Source of the DNA: a virus
Direction: 5' to 3' (one strand)
IMG/VR virus record: IMGVR_UViG_3300020045_020105
Coordinates: 29,247 to 93,246 of that record
Length of the DNA stretch: 64,000 nucleotides
Shown one piece after another: positions 33,267 to 64,000 of the stretch (positions are counted from its first letter, which is position 1; each line of letters opens with the position of its first letter). A program made the translations under genes and the position numbers. Under the pieces are notes generated by a model. The model saw only the letters and a program-made list of their open reading frames with translations. It made no database searches and had not been told where the DNA came from.

Positions 33267-33554
33267 ATGTGGAACGAATTAAAGCCATTAGTTATTGGAT
33301 TACTACTATTTATTGTCTTAGTTTCTTCAACTTTATTCTCAATATCTTGTTCAAATAAGAGGATAGAGAGATCAAGAAAGCAACAAGTACCTCAAATTAC
33401 ATTTGATCAAATCTACAAATTAGAAATATTAGATGGGCACGAAGTACTAATGACATTTAAAAAAGACAGTATCCACATTTATTACGAAAATGCTTATAAG
33501 TTAAGTGGAGAAGTAGAAAAAGGAGTTTATATTTATAGTAACTTTAAAAAATAA
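33267..33554 (+). CDS. putative lipoprotein or membrane protein
   Basis: hydrophobic N-terminus ending FSIS-C. Confidence 0.6.
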   Translation: MWNELKPLVIGLLLFIVLVSSTLFSISCSNKRIERSRKQQVPQITFDQIYKLEILDGHEVLMTFKKDSIHIYYENAYKLSGEVEKGVYIYSNFKK

Positions 33555-38549: not shown

Positions 38550-38828
38550 ATGAAAATGAGCGAAACATTTGCTGGATTAAGCTATGATAATCTAGCAGCT
38601 TTAGTTCCTTCTGGAAGTGGAGCAGGAATAAATATTATAAGACTTGTCGGAAATGATGGAGTAGATTATCCTGCTCCTGCTGATTTAGATATTTCTGGTC
38701 CTTTAGCAGCTTGGAATCCATTAGATTCAGAAGTTTCTGCTTTGAATGTAGCAGGAGTAGATACTATAAGATTTGTAGTAGCTCCTCTTGTAGGAGATTT
38801 CCCATTAATAATCTATACTAAGAAATAA
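38550..38828 (+). CDS. hypothetical structural or adaptor protein
   Basis: ORF track; beta-rich composition. Confidence 0.55.
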   Translation: MKMSETFAGLSYDNLAALVPSGSGAGINIIRLVGNDGVDYPAPADLDISGPLAAWNPLDSEVSALNVAGVDTIRFVVAPLVGDFPLIIYTKK

Positions 38829-38832
38829 AAAT

Positions 38833-39726
38833 ATGAAAAAATCAATTTTGATAACTTGCTCATTAGGAATTATCTTAATATCAGCAGTTACTAGTTTAAA
38901 GTGGAGACAGATTTCAGATGCAACTCCAACGGTAACAGAAATTAACTTTGTAGACGGAGTAACCTCCCCAATTCAAGCGCAATTAAATTCAAAAGTTGCT
39001 ACTATTGATTTGGTTAATCCTTGGCCTGCCATTAGAGATACTATTACAGCAAGGTTTGATAACACATCATTGACAGGCATTCCAACCGCACCAACAGCAG
39101 TAGCAGGAACAAATAACGCTCAGGTTGCTAATACAGAAAGTGTTATTTCTAACTTAAAAGCAAGATTTGATCTATTAAAAAAATTAGGAAGTGATATAGT
39201 TGGCATCCCAGTTGCTCCAGAATTTACAAATACATCTTCATCTGCGTTAATTGATAATGTTAGAATGGAAGTTTTAGTGTATGTTCCTAATGCATGTACC
39301 ATTCACGGAATTAGATTCGTTATGGCTGTTGCTGGAAATTATACGCCAGACAATTATAACGGAATAGGACTAAGTACTCTAAGTGGAATTAATATACATT
39401 TGGTGGCGAGTACTACCAATGATACTGCCGATCCTAATATGTTTGAGGCTACTGCGAATACTATTGTTACATCAACATTTTCTTCGTCTTATTCTGCCGC
39501 TGCTGGATTCTATATTGTTACTTTTTTATACAATAGTTCAGCCCAGACAACAGCACCATCAATTATAGGAGCCAATACACCACAAAGCGCAATGTACTCA
39601 AAGACTTTTTTTGGAACCAGTGTTAATATGGCCGCTTCAAAAACAGCATCAAGCACTATTCCGTCTGACACGGATACAAATACGTCTGTTACTAATGGGT
39701 CGTGTCCTTACTTACTAATTTTTTAA
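38833..39726 (+). CDS. fibre-like protein with signal peptide
   Basis: MKKSILITCSLGIILISA leader; EINFVDGVTSPIQAQLN and LTGIPTAPTAVAGTNNAQVANT phage fibre motifs. Confidence 0.7.
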   Translation: MKKSILITCSLGIILISAVTSLKWRQISDATPTVTEINFVDGVTSPIQAQLNSKVATIDLVNPWPAIRDTITARFDNTSLTGIPTAPTAVAGTNNAQVANTESVISNLKARFDLLKKLGSDIVGIPVAPEFTNTSSSALIDNVRMEVLVYVPNACTIHGIRFVMAVAGNYTPDNYNGIGLSTLSGINIHLVASTTNDTADPNMFEATANTIVTSTFSSSYSAAAGFYIVTFLYNSSAQTTAPSIIGANTPQSAMYSKTFFGTSVNMAASKTASSTIPSDTDTNTSVTNGSCPYLLIF

Positions 39727-39729
39727 ACC

Positions 39730-42700
39730 ATGAAAAGGATATTATTCTTTATTGCCTTACTTATTTCAATCTCAGTAAATGCAACGGTTTATCACGTCGG
39801 AATGGGTGGGGATTTTACAACATTGGCTCAGGTAAACGCTCATGCTTTTGTTGCAGGAGACCAAATATTATTTCAACGTGGTAGCACCTTTTATGGCTCA
39901 TTAACTGTTAAAAACTCCGGAACATATGGGAACCCTATTGCTTTTGGTGCTTATGGCACAGGAGATAACCCGGTAATAACTGGCTTTACCACTATCACAG
40001 AATGGGCAAACGAAGGCGGTGGTATTTATTCTAAAGTCATTACTTCAGAATCAGCAACGAATATGGTTACCGTGGATGGAGTACAATATGCAATGGGTCG
40101 TTATCCTAGTACTGGATTCTTGTCCTATGAAGATTGTAATGCTAATATTTCAATAACAGACAATCAATTAGGTGATGCGATAAACTGGACTGGAGCAGAA
40201 GCTGTCATAAAAAAGAACGGTTATAATATTGATAGGTGTTTGATAACTAATCACACTGGAAATGTTTTAACCTATACAAATTTAGGCGGTACAGGAAATG
40301 GGACGGCAGGATATGGTTATTTTATCCAAAATGATTTAAGGACTTTAGATCAATTTGGTGAGTGGTATCACGACACTGCAACCGGAAAGTTTTATATGTA
40401 TTTTGGTGTTGTTAATCCTGCAACTAAAATTATTAAGGCGGCAACTTTAAATAGAGTAGTCGCAAATACAGCTGGGTATGACTATATAATAGTTGACGGT
40501 ATAACTGCAACAGGTTCAATTTTTTCAACCATTGATTTTCTATCAAGTACTGACAATTGCTCAATTATAAACTGTTCGGTTTATTTTTCTGGACTTGATG
40601 GTATTCGAATAACGGGATCATCTGGATTAATTGATTCTAATGTTGTAAATAACTGTAATGTTGGTGGTATTGCCATTGGTGCGTCTGGTGCTACTAATAA
40701 TACAGTGACTAATAATTTGATCAGTAATTGCAATCTTCTTGATGGTCAAAAAAATAAAAATACGGTTGGGTTTTCGTTTCCTTGCGGTATTTTAGCTGCT
40801 TATGGAGGAACTAACATTCAATATAATAGAATTGAGAATGTTGGGTACAATGGAATGCATGTAGGAGGAAATAACTCAACAATAAAAAATAATTACATAT
40901 ACAATTCAGTCTCAAGACTTGATGATGGTGGGGCAATATATACAAATTCCAACCATACTAATTTTGTTATCGATGGTAATATTATTATCAATACAGTTGG
41001 ATATATAGGTGGTACTCCATTGACTTCAGTAAATGCAGAGGGTATATATTTAGATGAATTATGTAATGGGGTTACCGTACAAAACAATTCTATTGTGAGT
41101 TGTTCGGGTGCTGGAATAAAACTACATAAAGCTCATAACAACATCATACTAAATAACACCTGTTTTGATAATGGGATGGGATTGTATTTACTAAATTTTA
41201 CTACTAATTCAGAGTTATATGGAAATACTATTAGTGGAAATAAATTTATTGCTAAAACTGCTTTGCAGATACCGCTAAAATACAGGAGTTCGACTGACGA
41301 AATCGCAACATTCGGAACTACCGACAATAATATATACGCACGACCAATTGATGATACAGCTCCTATATACGCATATCAACCATCGCTTAGTTCTGCTCAA
41401 AACTATTCAGTGTCACAATGGAAAACATTTAGTTCCCTTGATGCAAGTTCATTGGGTTCTCCAAGGACTATATCTAATGTCGATGAGCTTCAATTTGAGT
41501 ATAACGATACCAAATCAGCCAAATCAGTCACTTTAAGTCAGCCAATGGTTGACATGGCAGGTGTAAAGTGTTCAGTAACAGTAACGCTACAACCATTTAC
41601 GTCCTTGGTTCTCATTCCGGCAGCAGCTTACTACGTGAGTTCAGTAGGCAATGATTCAAACGACGGATTAACGCCTGAAACGGCGTGGGAAACGATAGAT
41701 AAAGTTAATTCCACAACATTTTCAGCAGGTGATAATGTTTTATTCAAACGTGGCGATTCGTTTTACGGAACGATTACGGTAAATAGTGCTGGTTCGGAAT
41801 CAAATCCAATTACTTACGGAGCTTATGGCAGTGGAAATAAGCCAATCATAACGGGTTTTACTTCTATAACAGGATGGACTAACGAAGAAAACGGTATTTA
41901 TTCAAAAGTAATAACATCTTCTTCAAATACAAATATGGTTACCGTTGATGGTGTAAATATGCTTATGGGTCGGTATCCAAATACCGGATATTTGAGTTTT
42001 GAAACAGCATCTACCAACGTTTCAATTACAGATAATCAATTGATAGGTACACCAAATTGGACGGGAGCTGAGGTTGTAATTAGAAAGAACGACTGGACAC
42101 TTGACAGGTGTACAATTACCAATCACTCTACAACAACAATAATATATACTAGTCAAGGCTCAACTCAGAACGCAACCGCTGGATATGGTTATTTTATTCA
42201 GAATGATTTAAGGACTTTAGATCAGCTTGGAGAATGGTATCACGACACAACAACTGGAAAATTTTACATGTATTTTGGCGCAGTTAATCCTACAACAAAA
42301 ACGGTTAAAGTTGCCTCAATTGATAACCTATTTTATAATTCGTCTTGGATGGCAGAATACATTATTGTAGATGGATTAAATTTTCAGGGAAGCATTAAGA
42401 GTGCTTTTAATTTTCCTCAATGGTATACAGCGCATAATACTATTCAGAATTGTGATATTTTATTTGCAGGAGTAGATGGTATTAGTTGCGAATCTCCTTA
42501 TCTAAGTGTTCTGAATAATACTATTTCGGACTGTGCTAATAAAGGAATTTATACTAACCAAACTAATGAGATAATTACTGGAAATACTATATCAAAGATA
42601 GGATTAGTAGTTGGTCAGAGTATGACAGGCATAACCTCAGGGATTAGTTGTGGAAATGGAAATACTATTTTAATCCAAAACAACAATGTTCAAAATACGG

Positions 42701-43548
42701 GTTATAATGGTATATCGATAGGTTCATATAGCTCAAATTCTAGTACGATTAAAAACAATTACATAAACAACTTCGGGTTAAACCTTAATGATGGTGGTGG
42801 TATTTACACAACAGGATCGCACACATCTCTATTGATTGATGGCAATATTATTTTAAATGCGACAGGAAATTATCAGGGAACAATCGGAACCTCACTAACA
42901 TTTGAAGGTATTTATCTAGACGAATTTGCAAGTGGGATAACTGTTTCGAATAATACAATTGCAAATTGCAGCCATGATGGTATCAAATTGCACAAGTCAA
43001 GCAACTGTACATTGACAGGAAATACCATTTATAACAATGCAAATGGTATTGATTATCTAAATTCGGCAAACACATCTGTAATTACAGGGCATATATTATC
43101 TAATAATACAATTATTGCTAAAACAACCACTCAGATATGTTTGTCCCTGCAATGCTATTTTATTAATGATATTTTAAATTTTGACATTACGGCCAATAAT
43201 AATTACTATGCACGACCAATTTTAGATACAAATACATTTTTAGCGGCTCAACCTTCAAATTGGGGCAATTATATGACTTTAGAACAATGGAAAGTTTATA
43301 AGTCTCAGGATGCAAACTCTAAAAAATCGCCTCAGACCATTACATCTGAATCTGATTTGCAGTTCGAATATAATGCCACTTCGACGCCAAGAACTATCGT
43401 TCCTAATTGGGCTTCAATAGATGTTACTGGAAGAGATTATCGTGCGCCATTTATTTTACAACCTTATGAGTCATTGATTTTAATCAAAGACTATACGCCA
43501 TCTATTTATGTCCCTTATGGTGTAAATGGTAAATTATGGAAATTTTAA
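39730..43548 (+). CDS. signal-peptide-bearing, internally duplicated right-handed beta-helix (pectin lyase-like / depolymerase-like) protein
   Basis: MKRILFFIALLISISVNA|T; two ~620-aa units, each with GD..LF.RG..FYG, PI.FGAYG.G..P.I.G, DGG.IYT, GIYLDE. Confidence 0.85.
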   Translation: MKRILFFIALLISISVNATVYHVGMGGDFTTLAQVNAHAFVAGDQILFQRGSTFYGSLTVKNSGTYGNPIAFGAYGTGDNPVITGFTTITEWANEGGGIYSKVITSESATNMVTVDGVQYAMGRYPSTGFLSYEDCNANISITDNQLGDAINWTGAEAVIKKNGYNIDRCLITNHTGNVLTYTNLGGTGNGTAGYGYFIQNDLRTLDQFGEWYHDTATGKFYMYFGVVNPATKIIKAATLNRVVANTAGYDYIIVDGITATGSIFSTIDFLSSTDNCSIINCSVYFSGLDGIRITGSSGLIDSNVVNNCNVGGIAIGASGATNNTVTNNLISNCNLLDGQKNKNTVGFSFPCGILAAYGGTNIQYNRIENVGYNGMHVGGNNSTIKNNYIYNSVSRLDDGGAIYTNSNHTNFVIDGNIIINTVGYIGGTPLTSVNAEGIYLDELCNGVTVQNNSIVSCSGAGIKLHKAHNNIILNNTCFDNGMGLYLLNFTTNSELYGNTISGNKFIAKTALQIPLKYRSSTDEIATFGTTDNNIYARPIDDTAPIYAYQPSLSSAQNYSVSQWKTFSSLDASSLGSPRTISNVDELQFEYNDTKSAKSVTLSQPMVDMAGVKCSVTVTLQPFTSLVLIPAAAYYVSSVGNDSNDGLTPETAWETIDKVNSTTFSAGDNVLFKRGDSFYGTITVNSAGSESNPITYGAYGSGNKPIITGFTSITGWTNEENGIYSKVITSSSNTNMVTVDGVNMLMGRYPNTGYLSFETASTNVSITDNQLIGTPNWTGAEVVIRKNDWTLDRCTITNHSTTTIIYTSQGSTQNATAGYGYFIQNDLRTLDQLGEWYHDTTTGKFYMYFGAVNPTTKTVKVASIDNLFYNSSWMAEYIIVDGLNFQGSIKSAFNFPQWYTAHNTIQNCDILFAGVDGISCESPYLSVLNNTISDCANKGIYTNQTNEIITGNTISKIGLVVGQSMTGITSGISCGNGNTILIQNNNVQNTGYNGISIGSYSSNSSTIKNNYINNFGLNLNDGGGIYTTGSHTSLLIDGNIILNATGNYQGTIGTSLTFEGIYLDEFASGITVSNNTIANCSHDGIKLHKSSNCTLTGNTIYNNANGIDYLNSANTSVITGHILSNNTIIAKTTTQICLSLQCYFINDILNFDITANNNYYARPILDTNTFLAAQPSNWGNYMTLEQWKVYKSQDANSKKSPQTITSESDLQFEYNATSTPRTIVPNWASIDVTGRDYRAPFILQPYESLILIKDYTPSIYVPYGVNGKLWKF

Positions 43549-61427: not shown

Positions 61428-62588
61428 ATGTTAATTACCCTAATAACATTAGAAGAGTTAAAAGAAGCTATTCTAGAAGAGTTTCTAAATAACACAAGTA
61501 AGGTAACTAAGGTATCTCAAGACTCAGTCTTAATGGGGATTATTTTTGGTACAGCAAAAGTAGCTCAAAAAGCTATGAAGGAACTTGCTATTGCAGAAAG
61601 TCATTTTTTACCAGATGAAGCATTTGGAGCTCATCTAGATCAAATTGCTGAAGATAGAGGCATAGCACCAAGACAGGGAGCCTCCAAAAGCTCTACTTCT
61701 ATCATAGTTAGTGGAGATGAAGGAACTACTTATACTCAAGGAGTAAATACAGTGGTAGGAAACAATGGAATTGTCTTTGATCTTGAAGAAACTGTCGTAC
61801 TAGGTCCTCTAAAATGGGCTTATGTAAAAATAAGAAGCCAAGTTGAAGGAGTTATTGCAAACATAGCACCAAATTCTCTAAAGAGAATATCCCCTATCCC
61901 AATAGGGCACATTGCCTTAACAAATGAGTTTGGAGCTTCTGGAGGAAGAGATATTGAACAAGATGATCACTTGAAGAAAAGAATAAAGGAGAGTATTAAT
62001 TTATTAGCTCAAGATACTCTAAGTAAAATAGAAAATGTCCTTCAATCACAAAACTCAGATATTTTAAAAGTATATCATCAAGGTAGAAATGCTCTAGGCG
62101 ATATTATTTTAGGAATAGCAACCCAAAATGGAGTTAACCTTACAGAAGAAGAACTAGGTACACTATTAATTTATCTTATTCCTTATTTAGGAATATCAAG
62201 CTTAAATTACAATTTTTACGGTGAACAGGGAATTATACTTCAAAATATTATCTACACTCCAATTGATTTAGATTTCAGAATAAGTATTGCACCAGGATAT
62301 TCACCAGATACAATTCGTCAAGAAATTCAAACCAAACTAAATAAATTAATTGATTATAGATATTGGGATGAAGCAGTAGGGTTAGTTGAGTGGGATGACA
62401 TTTTGGCTACAATAAAATCTATTGAAGGAGTTAAATATGTTCCAGACCAATATTTAACACCAAATTATGATATTAAAATCCCTGTAAATACCTTACCTAG
62501 GTTTAGAGGATTTTTAATGAGAGATTTAGATGGTGTCTTGATCCTTAGTTCAAATTCATTATTTCAAATATATTATCCTAGCATATAA
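61428..62588 (+). CDS. baseplate J-like protein
   Basis: A.G.HLD.IA..RGI.PR, G...NI, N.....GG.DIE.DD.LKKRI, I.SIEGV..V. Confidence 0.88.
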   Translation: MLITLITLEELKEAILEEFLNNTSKVTKVSQDSVLMGIIFGTAKVAQKAMKELAIAESHFLPDEAFGAHLDQIAEDRGIAPRQGASKSSTSIIVSGDEGTTYTQGVNTVVGNNGIVFDLEETVVLGPLKWAYVKIRSQVEGVIANIAPNSLKRISPIPIGHIALTNEFGASGGRDIEQDDHLKKRIKESINLLAQDTLSKIENVLQSQNSDILKVYHQGRNALGDIILGIATQNGVNLTEEELGTLLIYLIPYLGISSLNYNFYGEQGIILQNIIYTPIDLDFRISIAPGYSPDTIRQEIQTKLNKLIDYRYWDEAVGLVEWDDILATIKSIEGVKYVPDQYLTPNYDIKIPVNTLPRFRGFLMRDLDGVLILSSNSLFQIYYPSI

Positions 62589-63304
62589 TGTTAGTAAAAA
62601 ATTTAGACAATACTAAAATATTAGCTTTTTCAGACAAAGCACCGGCTGATATTTCCTTTATTTGGTATAATCTAAATAATGGTAAAAAGTACTTCTATAA
62701 CCTAAATACCAATTTATGGGAAGAAGTGCTTTTATCACAAAAAGGAGTATTTCTACCATTTTTAACAACAAAACAAAAAGTAAGTAATGGAAATGCTATA
62801 TTTTTTCCTTTTGATAATGAAGGAGAAGTAAAAGACCAAAAAGTTGCTCTATTATCTGTTGAAGGAGGTTCAAGTTCAATTCCTGGATTCTTACAAGAAG
62901 AATATTTTATAATCTCTATTTTAGAAGATGGAAGATATGTAATTAAAAATAAATATGCTACAGAAGATCAAGAGGGACTTGTAAAAAAAGCAACAGATGA
63001 GGAAGTTTTAATTGGTAAAGAAAATACTAAATATATAACCCCATTCCAATTATTTGAGTTTTATAAACCAGCAAAAATAGAATTCTCAAATACTTCAACC
63101 CCATTAATAGAAAATTATGAGGAGTTGTATTTAGAACTTTATTCTAATTATCCTAGCGTTCAACTATTAACCTATTCAGGAGATGATCAAGAATGGGAGC
63201 ATAAGCAAACAGAACCAACTTGGCATAGAGTAGATGGAATCTTACAAAGTATAACTTTTGATTTACCAGATTTATATAGTGGATATATATTACTAAAACG
63301 ATGA
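62588..63304 (+). CDS. tail fibre or fibre-adaptor protein
   Basis: ATEDQEGLVKKATDEEV..G....YITP.QL, a T4 gp34/gp12-type fibre repeat. Confidence 0.6.
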   Translation: MLVKNLDNTKILAFSDKAPADISFIWYNLNNGKKYFYNLNTNLWEEVLLSQKGVFLPFLTTKQKVSNGNAIFFPFDNEGEVKDQKVALLSVEGGSSSIPGFLQEEYFIISILEDGRYVIKNKYATEDQEGLVKKATDEEVLIGKENTKYITPFQLFEFYKPAKIEFSNTSTPLIENYEELYLELYSNYPSVQLLTYSGDDQEWEHKQTEPTWHRVDGILQSITFDLPDLYSGYILLKR

Positions 63305-64000
63305 AAAAAATACTCGCTTCTATATTATTACTCTTCTCTATTTTAACAAATGGACAAGATATAAAACCAATAGACCCTATTAATTTTAGAGCTATTCAGA
63401 GTGCTTCTTTTAGTGTATATGCAATTGATAGTTCTATCTGGCTTTATAAGGGAATGGCTTTTTCCCCTAATCAGTGGATTAAACTTGCAACAGATGCACA
63501 TTTAAGAAGATACTATGTTCCTTACGATAATGCTAATAGAGATGTTAACCTAAACACTCACTCAGTTGCTACTTCAGGAATAAAGTTAAATACCGTTAAC
63601 CCATTGGTAGTAATCAACTCAGGAGAGATTGGGTGGAATGCTCATGATATGACCGTGAATTTAAAAACACCAAATACTATAATACAATTAAGTCAAGAAC
63701 AAACCTTTCCAGTAAAGAATATTACTGGCTCAACTCTGCTAAATGGCAGATTAGTTAGGATGACTGGACATGATTCAGTAAATGATTACTATATAGTAGA
63801 ATATGCAGACAATTCAACAGAACAATCAGCACTTGCAGATTTTATGTTGTCGTCAGATATATTGAATGGAGAGATGGGTCTTGCAACGAAAACAGGTATA
63901 GTTCATGAACTAAATACTATTGGCGGAACATCTCAAAATCCAGTATATTTGGGGACTTCTGGACTATATACTTTTTTAAAACCAGAATATCCAGCAAAAG
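63301..64000 (+). CDS. fibre-like protein with signal peptide, 3'-partial (not in ORF track)
   Basis: MKKILASILLLFSILTNG|QDIKP...; YVPYDNANRDVNL and VKNITGSTLLNG...DI.NG..G.AT..GIV..LNT fibre motifs; open to the window end. Confidence 0.8.
   Translation, partial: MKKILASILLLFSILTNGQDIKPIDPINFRAIQSASFSVYAIDSSIWLYKGMAFSPNQWIKLATDAHLRRYYVPYDNANRDVNLNTHSVATSGIKLNTVNPLVVINSGEIGWNAHDMTVNLKTPNTIIQLSQEQTFPVKNITGSTLLNGRLVRMTGHDSVNDYYIVEYADNSTEQSALADFMLSSDILNGEMGLATKTGIVHELNTIGGTSQNPVYLGTSGLYTFLKPEYPAK

Follow-up and report, generated by a model that had tools for sequence, protein, structure and literature searches.

The gene that starts at position 63301 of a 64,000-nucleotide stretch of virus DNA (the window; bases 29,247–93,246 of the 93,246-bp IMG/VR contig IMGVR_UViG_3300020045_020105, the window end being the contig end) encodes a tail-fibre protein whose N terminus is, judged by its sequence, a textbook Bacteroidota signal for Sec export and cleavage by signal peptidase I (SPase I). 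We propose that this protein is the distal half of a split tail fibre that is exported, cleaved and, when holin lesions merge the two compartments, docked through its new N terminus on a signal-less adaptor encoded directly upstream; we put the chances of this reading at about even. The observations behind it are the features and conservation of the signal, the synteny of the adaptor with the N-terminal module of the fibre, a fused single-chain homologue and homology to phage fibres. Coordinates are window positions unless another contig is named, and features written with two dots lie on the plus strand.

The predicted signal peptide comprises residues 1–18 (63301..63354) with cleavage predicted at G18/Q19 (a slash marks the cut here and below), as delineated by the sequence, the homologue alignment and a modelled helix at residues 2–17. 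The leader, MKKILASILLLFSILTNG followed by Q, has a basic n-region (MKK), a 12-residue uncharged hydrophobic core and then T-N-G, with Gln at +1 and small or neutral residues at −3 and −1. Assessed by the von Heijne rules and by conservation, it has the features of a Bacteroidota-type Sec/SPase I signal, in agreement with the cleavable Sec signal that a first-pass annotation of the window had assigned to this fibre gene. The gene start given there is also confirmed, the ATGA that begins at 63301 spanning the stop codon of the preceding gene (62588).

The N-terminal module that follows the leader (N-module) is common to 19 other proteins, and such a leader stands at the start of 19/19. When all of these and the fibre are aligned at the cleavage site (n = 20), the residue at −1 is G, S or A in 20/20, +1 is Gln in 19/20, +2 is Asp in 18/20 and Pro23 is invariant. 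Mean pairwise identity over the 20 aligned homologues is 0.29 in the leader versus 0.54 in mature residues 19–36. Conservation that starts exactly at the predicted cleavage site would be anticipated for a genuine cut that exposes an N terminus of importance. No downstream start is conserved, Met52 not being kept in the 19 homologues.

The mature N-module (residues 19–62; 63355..63486), as defined by the alignment and a structure model, combines an arm of conserved sequence, QDIKPIDP, with a small sheet of three strands, and is the proposed docking end. Q19, D20 and P23 are invariant or nearly so, and the module is N-terminal without exception, with a leader in front each time. Leaders of the same kind are also borne by 20 of the 84 homologues of the fibre body, where they precede at least five unrelated mature N termini; the remaining body homologues have ordinary leaderless fibre N termini. 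Gln is the first polar residue after the hydrophobic core in 36 of 54 leader-like homologues. The recurrence of leaders on at least five unrelated N-terminal modules points to selection rather than to a relic. Several short proteins (135–213 amino acids; L022:5971-6387, L029:5001-5606, P0121 and P0225) consist of hardly more than leader and N-module, with more leader-bearing proteins encoded behind them. Other exported parts, too, may be connected through the N-module.

In Bacteroidota, SPase I cleavage exposes a Gln that a glutaminyl cyclase at the periplasmic face turns into pyroglutamate in host proteins (the Q-rule; Bochtler et al. 2018, PMC5837995). The fibre homologues show the same −1/+1 pattern in 19–20 of 20, but the known Q-rule substrates are host envelope proteins whereas here the substrate would be a tail-fibre protein of a phage, and the fibre conserves the residues that follow Gln far beyond what a sorting signal needs. 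Neither the 1027 C-terminal residues of the fibre nor the other three leader proteins of the phage match the sorting domain of the type IX secretion system (T9SS) (Por_Secre_tail, type B C-terminal domain; no Pfam match at E ≤ 0.01, no NCBIfam match at E ≤ 1), and the fibre has no lipoprotein box. The periplasm is therefore the expected destination of the fibre.

The contig carries a direct terminal repeat of 121 bp (window 63880–64000 = G000:C1:1-121) that falls inside the fibre gene, so the contig breaks where assembly cut a circular or circularly permuted sequence, and the truncation of the gene is only apparent. Once read through the repeat, the fibre protein has 1220 amino acids, with residues 194–1220 at L003:1-3081. 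Residues ~105–233 (63613..64000, the gene going on to residue 1220 as G000:C1:122-3084 = L003:122-3084) form a widespread fibre domain, recognized by tblastn, library matches and the model. The fibre-type motifs reported in the first-pass annotation are borne out by tblastn, in which residues 106–231 align with proteins of Pseudomonas phage Rollin and Roseobacter phage CRP-6 that are annotated as tail fibres; residues 70–233 have 2112 protein matches at E ≤ 0.001 in a representative library, mostly at internal positions of long proteins. The 63301 gene thus contains a domain that bears a tail-fibre annotation in cultured phages. It is located at the end of the tail/baseplate module, a position that recurs at 12 other loci.

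The fibre body (residues ~210–660) is common to 84 metagenomic proteins (38–60% identity) that differ in length and C terminus; they cover 36–52% of the fibre query and then diverge. A conserved proximal part with a variable distal part is, as far as these alignments indicate, the pattern usual for receptor-binding fibres. Neighbours of the fibre in the Atlas are viral clusters in every case. We found no paralogue of the fibre, and no leaderless copy of its binding part, elsewhere in the phage, and no prophage copies in 185,579 species genomes searched with N-module patterns. A CxxC pair (CQKC) at fibre residues 280–283 (L003:259-270) opens the conserved body, with C-Q-K/E-Q or similar in some homologues.

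The model of residues 1–233 (mean predicted local distance difference test score, pLDDT, 88; all structure models were of monomers) comprises the helix at 2–17, an extended segment at 19–36, the small sheet at 37–62 and a beta domain at 105–233. The beta domain has pLDDT above 90, and its likeness in fold to the phi29 head-fibre base and to capsid decoration proteins is weak (Foldseek E 0.03).

The 238-residue adaptor encoded directly upstream (62588..63304, its stop overlapping the fibre start) has no hydrophobic leader and was characterized through PHROG and PDB sequence matches. Residues 120–155 form one fibre repeat of the T4 gp12/gp34 type (PHROG 972, tail fibre proximal subunit, E 5e-5; PHROG 910, tail collar fibre, E 6e-4), for which the PDB matches are T4 gp34 (E 0.003) and gp12 (E 0.04). 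The C-terminal ‘dock’ domain (residues ~160–238, ~80 amino acids; 63065..63301) emerged from pairwise BLAST of upstream open reading frames (ORFs), alignments and a hidden Markov model (HMM): at four other viral loci, the ORF that directly precedes the N-module gene has a C terminus resembling the last ~80 residues of the adaptor. An HMM of the dock built from five loci matches the directly upstream ORFs in loci outside its build set, namely L020, L021, L022 and L024 (E 1e-14 to 6e-23) and L027, L028 and L029 (E 1e-22 to 2e-25). Counted over distinct loci containing the N-module, a dock domain is present upstream of the N-module gene in 12/13, and seven of these were not in the HMM build.

The pairing is tight. 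Adaptor and N-module genes overlap or lie 0–3 nt apart in 11/12 pairs; at L024, one small leader-bearing ORF stands between the dock gene and the N-module gene. The adaptors are without leaders at every locus examined, and L025, where the N-module is absent, has neither dock nor leader. The loci with a dock span contractile-tail phages (with Baseplate J) and long-tail phages (with a tape measure), and across them the N-terminal parts of the adaptors vary whereas the dock is constant. The dock is also the one part of the adaptor to be modelled with confidence (pLDDT 84–95), as a compact alpha/beta domain with six strands and a single helix. With the adaptor itself as query, one search returned only itself and another returned three short proteins.

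A leaderless homologue of 1030 amino acids, P0085, joins an adaptor-type N-terminal domain to the fibre body in a single chain: its residues 3–131 match the N-terminal part of the L020 adaptor (E 2e-8) and its residues 275–786 match the body of this fibre (42% identity, E 3e-63). P0085 has no dock domain, leader or N-module. Adaptor plus leader-bearing fibre therefore looks like a split version of such a chain, with the dock/N-module joint and the leader inserted at the break. Members of the fibre family with other types of leader also have a tightly coupled leaderless ORF upstream, one of which shares segments with leaderless members of the family. The first-pass annotation had suggested two signal-less adaptors, the 62588 protein and a small ORF at 38550. 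The dock synteny at 12/13 loci and the P0085 fusion support the first; the 38550 ORF has no similarity to the dock domain of the 62588 protein, and a role as second adaptor is not supported.

Portal, major head protein, a tail protein with lysin activity and Baseplate J are among the surrounding genes (Pfam, PHROG), and from their predicted products these genes identify the phage as contractile-tailed. The Baseplate J-like wedge protein (386 amino acids; 61428..62588; Pfam PF04865, E 3.9e-15; PHROG 6, baseplate wedge subunit, E 5e-31) is encoded directly upstream of the adaptor. Its nearest relatives in cultured phages are those of Chryseobacterium phage MA9V-3 and of Bacteroides thetaiotaomicron phages DAC16 and relatives (38–44% identity), and the host is therefore a member of the Bacteroidota. 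Where the tail module ends, the genes run in the order Baseplate J, the 238-residue signal-less protein, the 1220-residue fibre, a 951-residue leader protein, two small ORFs and the endolysin, which lies ~7 kb past the fibre gene (PHROG 894, E 3e-8).

In the proposed split fibre, the 62588 protein would be the proximal part, following Baseplate J and ending in the dock, and the 63301 protein would be the distal part. The distal part would be made with its Sec signal, moved to the periplasm, cut by SPase I before Gln19 and folded there as a fibre. Its freshly exposed N terminus (QDIKPIDP...) and small sheet would bind the dock domain. Binding would be possible only once holin lesions merge cytoplasm and periplasm at lysis, and distal fibres would be added to the particles at the last moment. 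We infer the export, the cleavage, the pyroglutamate, the physical contact and its timing. More tentatively, and with somewhat less than even confidence, we suggest that particles are completed across two compartments, that dock and newly exposed N terminus form a dedicated lock, and that signal-peptide cleavage acts as the licence for docking.

Several points weigh against a split fibre of this kind. The genes after Baseplate J in MA9V-3 and DAC16 carry no leaders, which makes the arrangement optional and unneeded by this phage lineage. The baseplate role of the adaptor is deduced from where it is encoded and from one weakly matching repeat (E 0.003 to 5e-5), the dock domain was undetected at L008, and the best match in a fold search with the dock had Z 5.9, below the noise guide of 8, the matches including several phage tail or baseplate chains. 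One family member, P0073, may carry an adaptor-like N-terminal domain behind a leader (E 2e-4), blurring the division into cytoplasmic and exported parts. Export, cleavage and virion incorporation are predictions for the fibre and its close homologues. Docking at lysis would also have to compete with dilution, and we know of no such step described for tailed phages.

The alternative that survives best, although we consider it unlikely, is that the fibre is exported but never joins the particle, and instead acts in the infected cell's envelope or is set free when the cell lyses. It might occupy or alter receptors and so keep progeny from being trapped on debris, exclude superinfection, or bind or degrade glycans together with the neighbouring leader proteins. 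The canonical leader, the location of the cassette just before the lysis genes and the adjoining leader proteins of glycan type (the 951-residue protein with arabinanase-like repeats and a beta-helix protein) would all fit, and exported ‘moron’ proteins are encoded in the tail-fibre regions of other phages (lambda lom). However, the fibre has no T9SS C-terminal domain or lipoprotein signal with which to reach the cell surface, and a decoy would have nothing to mimic, since a leaderless copy of the binding part is missing from the phage. Such a role would also leave the 238-residue protein as the only fibre of the phage, and would leave unexplained both the strict, tight pairing with a signal-less fibre-repeat protein and the fusion of an adaptor N-terminal domain to a fibre body. 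The pairing and the fused homologue are what lead us to prefer the split fibre here. The first-pass annotation had offered surface exclusion or a decoy as its own alternative, and that idea loses ground on the missing surface signal, the missing leaderless copy and the tight adaptor linkage.

Somewhat less probable again is that the leader is unused, or only partly used, during infection, and that the fibre folds and attaches in the cytoplasm with its hydrophobic N terminus buried at the adaptor interface or retained as a relic of a host gene. To our knowledge, all known tail assembly in tailed phages is cytoplasmic. The cytoplasm would be the simplest meeting place with a leaderless adaptor, and fast trimer folding could outrun translocation. 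A structural helix should keep its sequence, however, whereas this leader keeps only its hydrophobicity while the cleavage-site rule and the residues that follow are conserved; leaders also recur on unrelated N-terminal modules, and SAR (signal-arrest-release) endolysins show that Sec works late in infection. It is the conservation at the cleavage site that favours the split fibre over an unused leader. Least probable of all, and in our view improbable, is that both forms are made, some fibres being exported for an envelope role and others escaping export or starting downstream and being built into particles: leaky export is compatible with all findings, and some depolymerase phages have free and virion-bound forms of one receptor-binding protein, but there is no conserved internal start and the dock pairs with a module that starts exactly at the cleavage site.

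In the textbook account, tailed phages are assembled wholly in the cytoplasm. If the split fibre is real, it would instead place a final assembly step at or after disruption of the inner membrane, with a secretion signal on the receptor-binding fibre and a docking protein that has none. This would bear on how proteins that set host range fold and how engineered fibres are expressed, on the annotation of phage proteins, where leaders are often read as evidence against a virion role, and on the link between lysis timing and particle maturation. The adaptor/N-module pair is a compact interaction that can be tested directly.

Literature searches on signal peptides of tail fibres and virion proteins found no description for tailed phages. 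Among the closest known systems is Cellulophaga phage phi18:3, which also has a Bacteroidota host and in which gp085, gp086 and gp087 are large late proteins, encoded just before the lysis genes, whose leaders end S/Q or A/Q. These three proteins are annotated ‘structural protein’ on experimental tandem mass spectrometry (MS/MS) of virions according to a GenBank note (KC821620). That phage differs in being a podovirus. Comparison of phi18:3 gp083–092 with all ORFs of the phage studied here gave no blastp match at E ≤ 0.01, and phi18:3 has no similarity to the fibre, the adaptor dock or the N-module, the pair being absent there. In Cellulophaga phage phi46:3, structural proteins within the region examined have no leaders. 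What this analysis contributes is an example from a phage with a contractile tail, the conserved dock of the adaptor and the fused homologue.

Outside phages, the mosaic adhesive trimer (MAT) fibres of Bdellovibrio bacteriovorus are trimers that resemble phage tail fibres and have a signal peptide, a conserved N-terminal beta-rich domain of ~130 residues and variable tips (PMC10769870). They share with our fibre the leader and a ~95-residue beta-helix segment (fibre residues ~1011–1107), which matches Bd3182 (PDB 8OJN) with E 1e-6. MAT fibres are thus a precedent for making phage-fibre-like trimers with a signal peptide in front. They are, however, encoded by chromosomal genes of a predatory bacterium and were obtained from invasion-associated vesicle preparations (PMC10769870) rather than being carried on a virus particle built in the cytoplasm, and their description includes no signal-less docking partner. 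The fibre gene lies on a complete phage contig and is therefore not a MAT member by origin.

The fibres of T4 (gp34 proximal, gp36/gp37 distal) and of P2-type phages (gpI/gpH) likewise have separately encoded proximal and distal parts with a non-covalent joint. The gene order of J, small connector and long fibre is also shared, and the adaptor here has one gp12/gp34-type repeat. In contrast to the present system, all fibre parts of T4 and P2 are cytoplasmic and made without signal peptides, and neither has a detectable counterpart of the dock domain or the N-module.

The first-pass annotation had further proposed that the exported fibre is matured by glycans and disulfides. The O-glycosylation sequon HDSV that it cited is indeed present in the fibre, but sequons of the form D-(S/T)-(A/I/L/V/M/T) are depleted rather than enriched, with 2 observed versus 5.7 expected. 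The four leader-bearing proteins together have 8 versus 16.9 expected (shuffle P 0.01), the 951-residue protein having 1 versus 4.9, and the rest of the phage has 70 versus 58 expected. Enrichment of sequons for the general Bacteroidota O-glycosylation system is therefore rejected for the fibre and for the four leader proteins, and glycan maturation is not supported. Across the family, leader-bearing homologues have 34 sequons versus 92 expected and leaderless homologues 199 versus 298, a deeper depletion in the former (0.37) than in the latter (0.67) that is suggestive only, the sequences being related. Depletion is smaller for other orderings of the sequon residues. This pattern might reflect avoidance of glycosylation by an exported protein. 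Disulfide maturation finds little footing in the fibre, which has only 3 Cys; the 951-residue and 1272-residue leader proteins have 12 and 20, respectively. Of the first-pass interpretation as a whole, the conserved Sec/SPase I signal on a gene in fibre position and the 62588 protein as adaptor are supported, and the glycans, the disulfides and the 38550 ORF are not.

Signal peptides had also been reported on two further genes, at 38833 and 39730, and the claim holds for the latter. The 39730 gene (39730..43548), located in the head module between those for portal and major head protein, encodes a second leader-bearing late protein of 1272 amino acids with a canonical leader ending VNA/T. It appears enzyme-like, with two similar halves that are each a right-handed beta-helix (Pfam Beta_helix, E 2e-37; NosD; GH141_M). 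In another phage, a leader-bearing homologue of its N terminus adjoins the fibre module (L020:548-2524). The third hydrophobic-leader protein (297 amino acids; 38833..39726) has a short fibre motif (PHROG tail fibre families, E 2e-6 to 2e-5 over ~30–50 residues); its hydrophobic N terminus has no small-x-small/Gln cleavage motif and may be a signal anchor rather than a cleaved leader.

Just past the window end, the fibre gene is followed by that for the 951-residue protein (L003:3065-5920), whose leader ends A/Q. N-terminal ‘DGINW’-type repeats, which suggest a beta-propeller, precede four copies of a ~90-residue unit resembling the N-terminal domain of Bacteroides arabinanase BT0360 (NCBIfam E 3e-38, below cutoff). 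The interval from these leader proteins to the endolysin (L003:5976-7384) holds two ORFs, one of 154 residues and one of 158 residues with a leader ending VQA; both are candidates for accessory proteins of lysis. A 95-residue ORF at some distance from the lysis genes (33267–33554) has a hydrophobic N terminus followed by Cys (..SISC/SNK) and is a possible lipoprotein.

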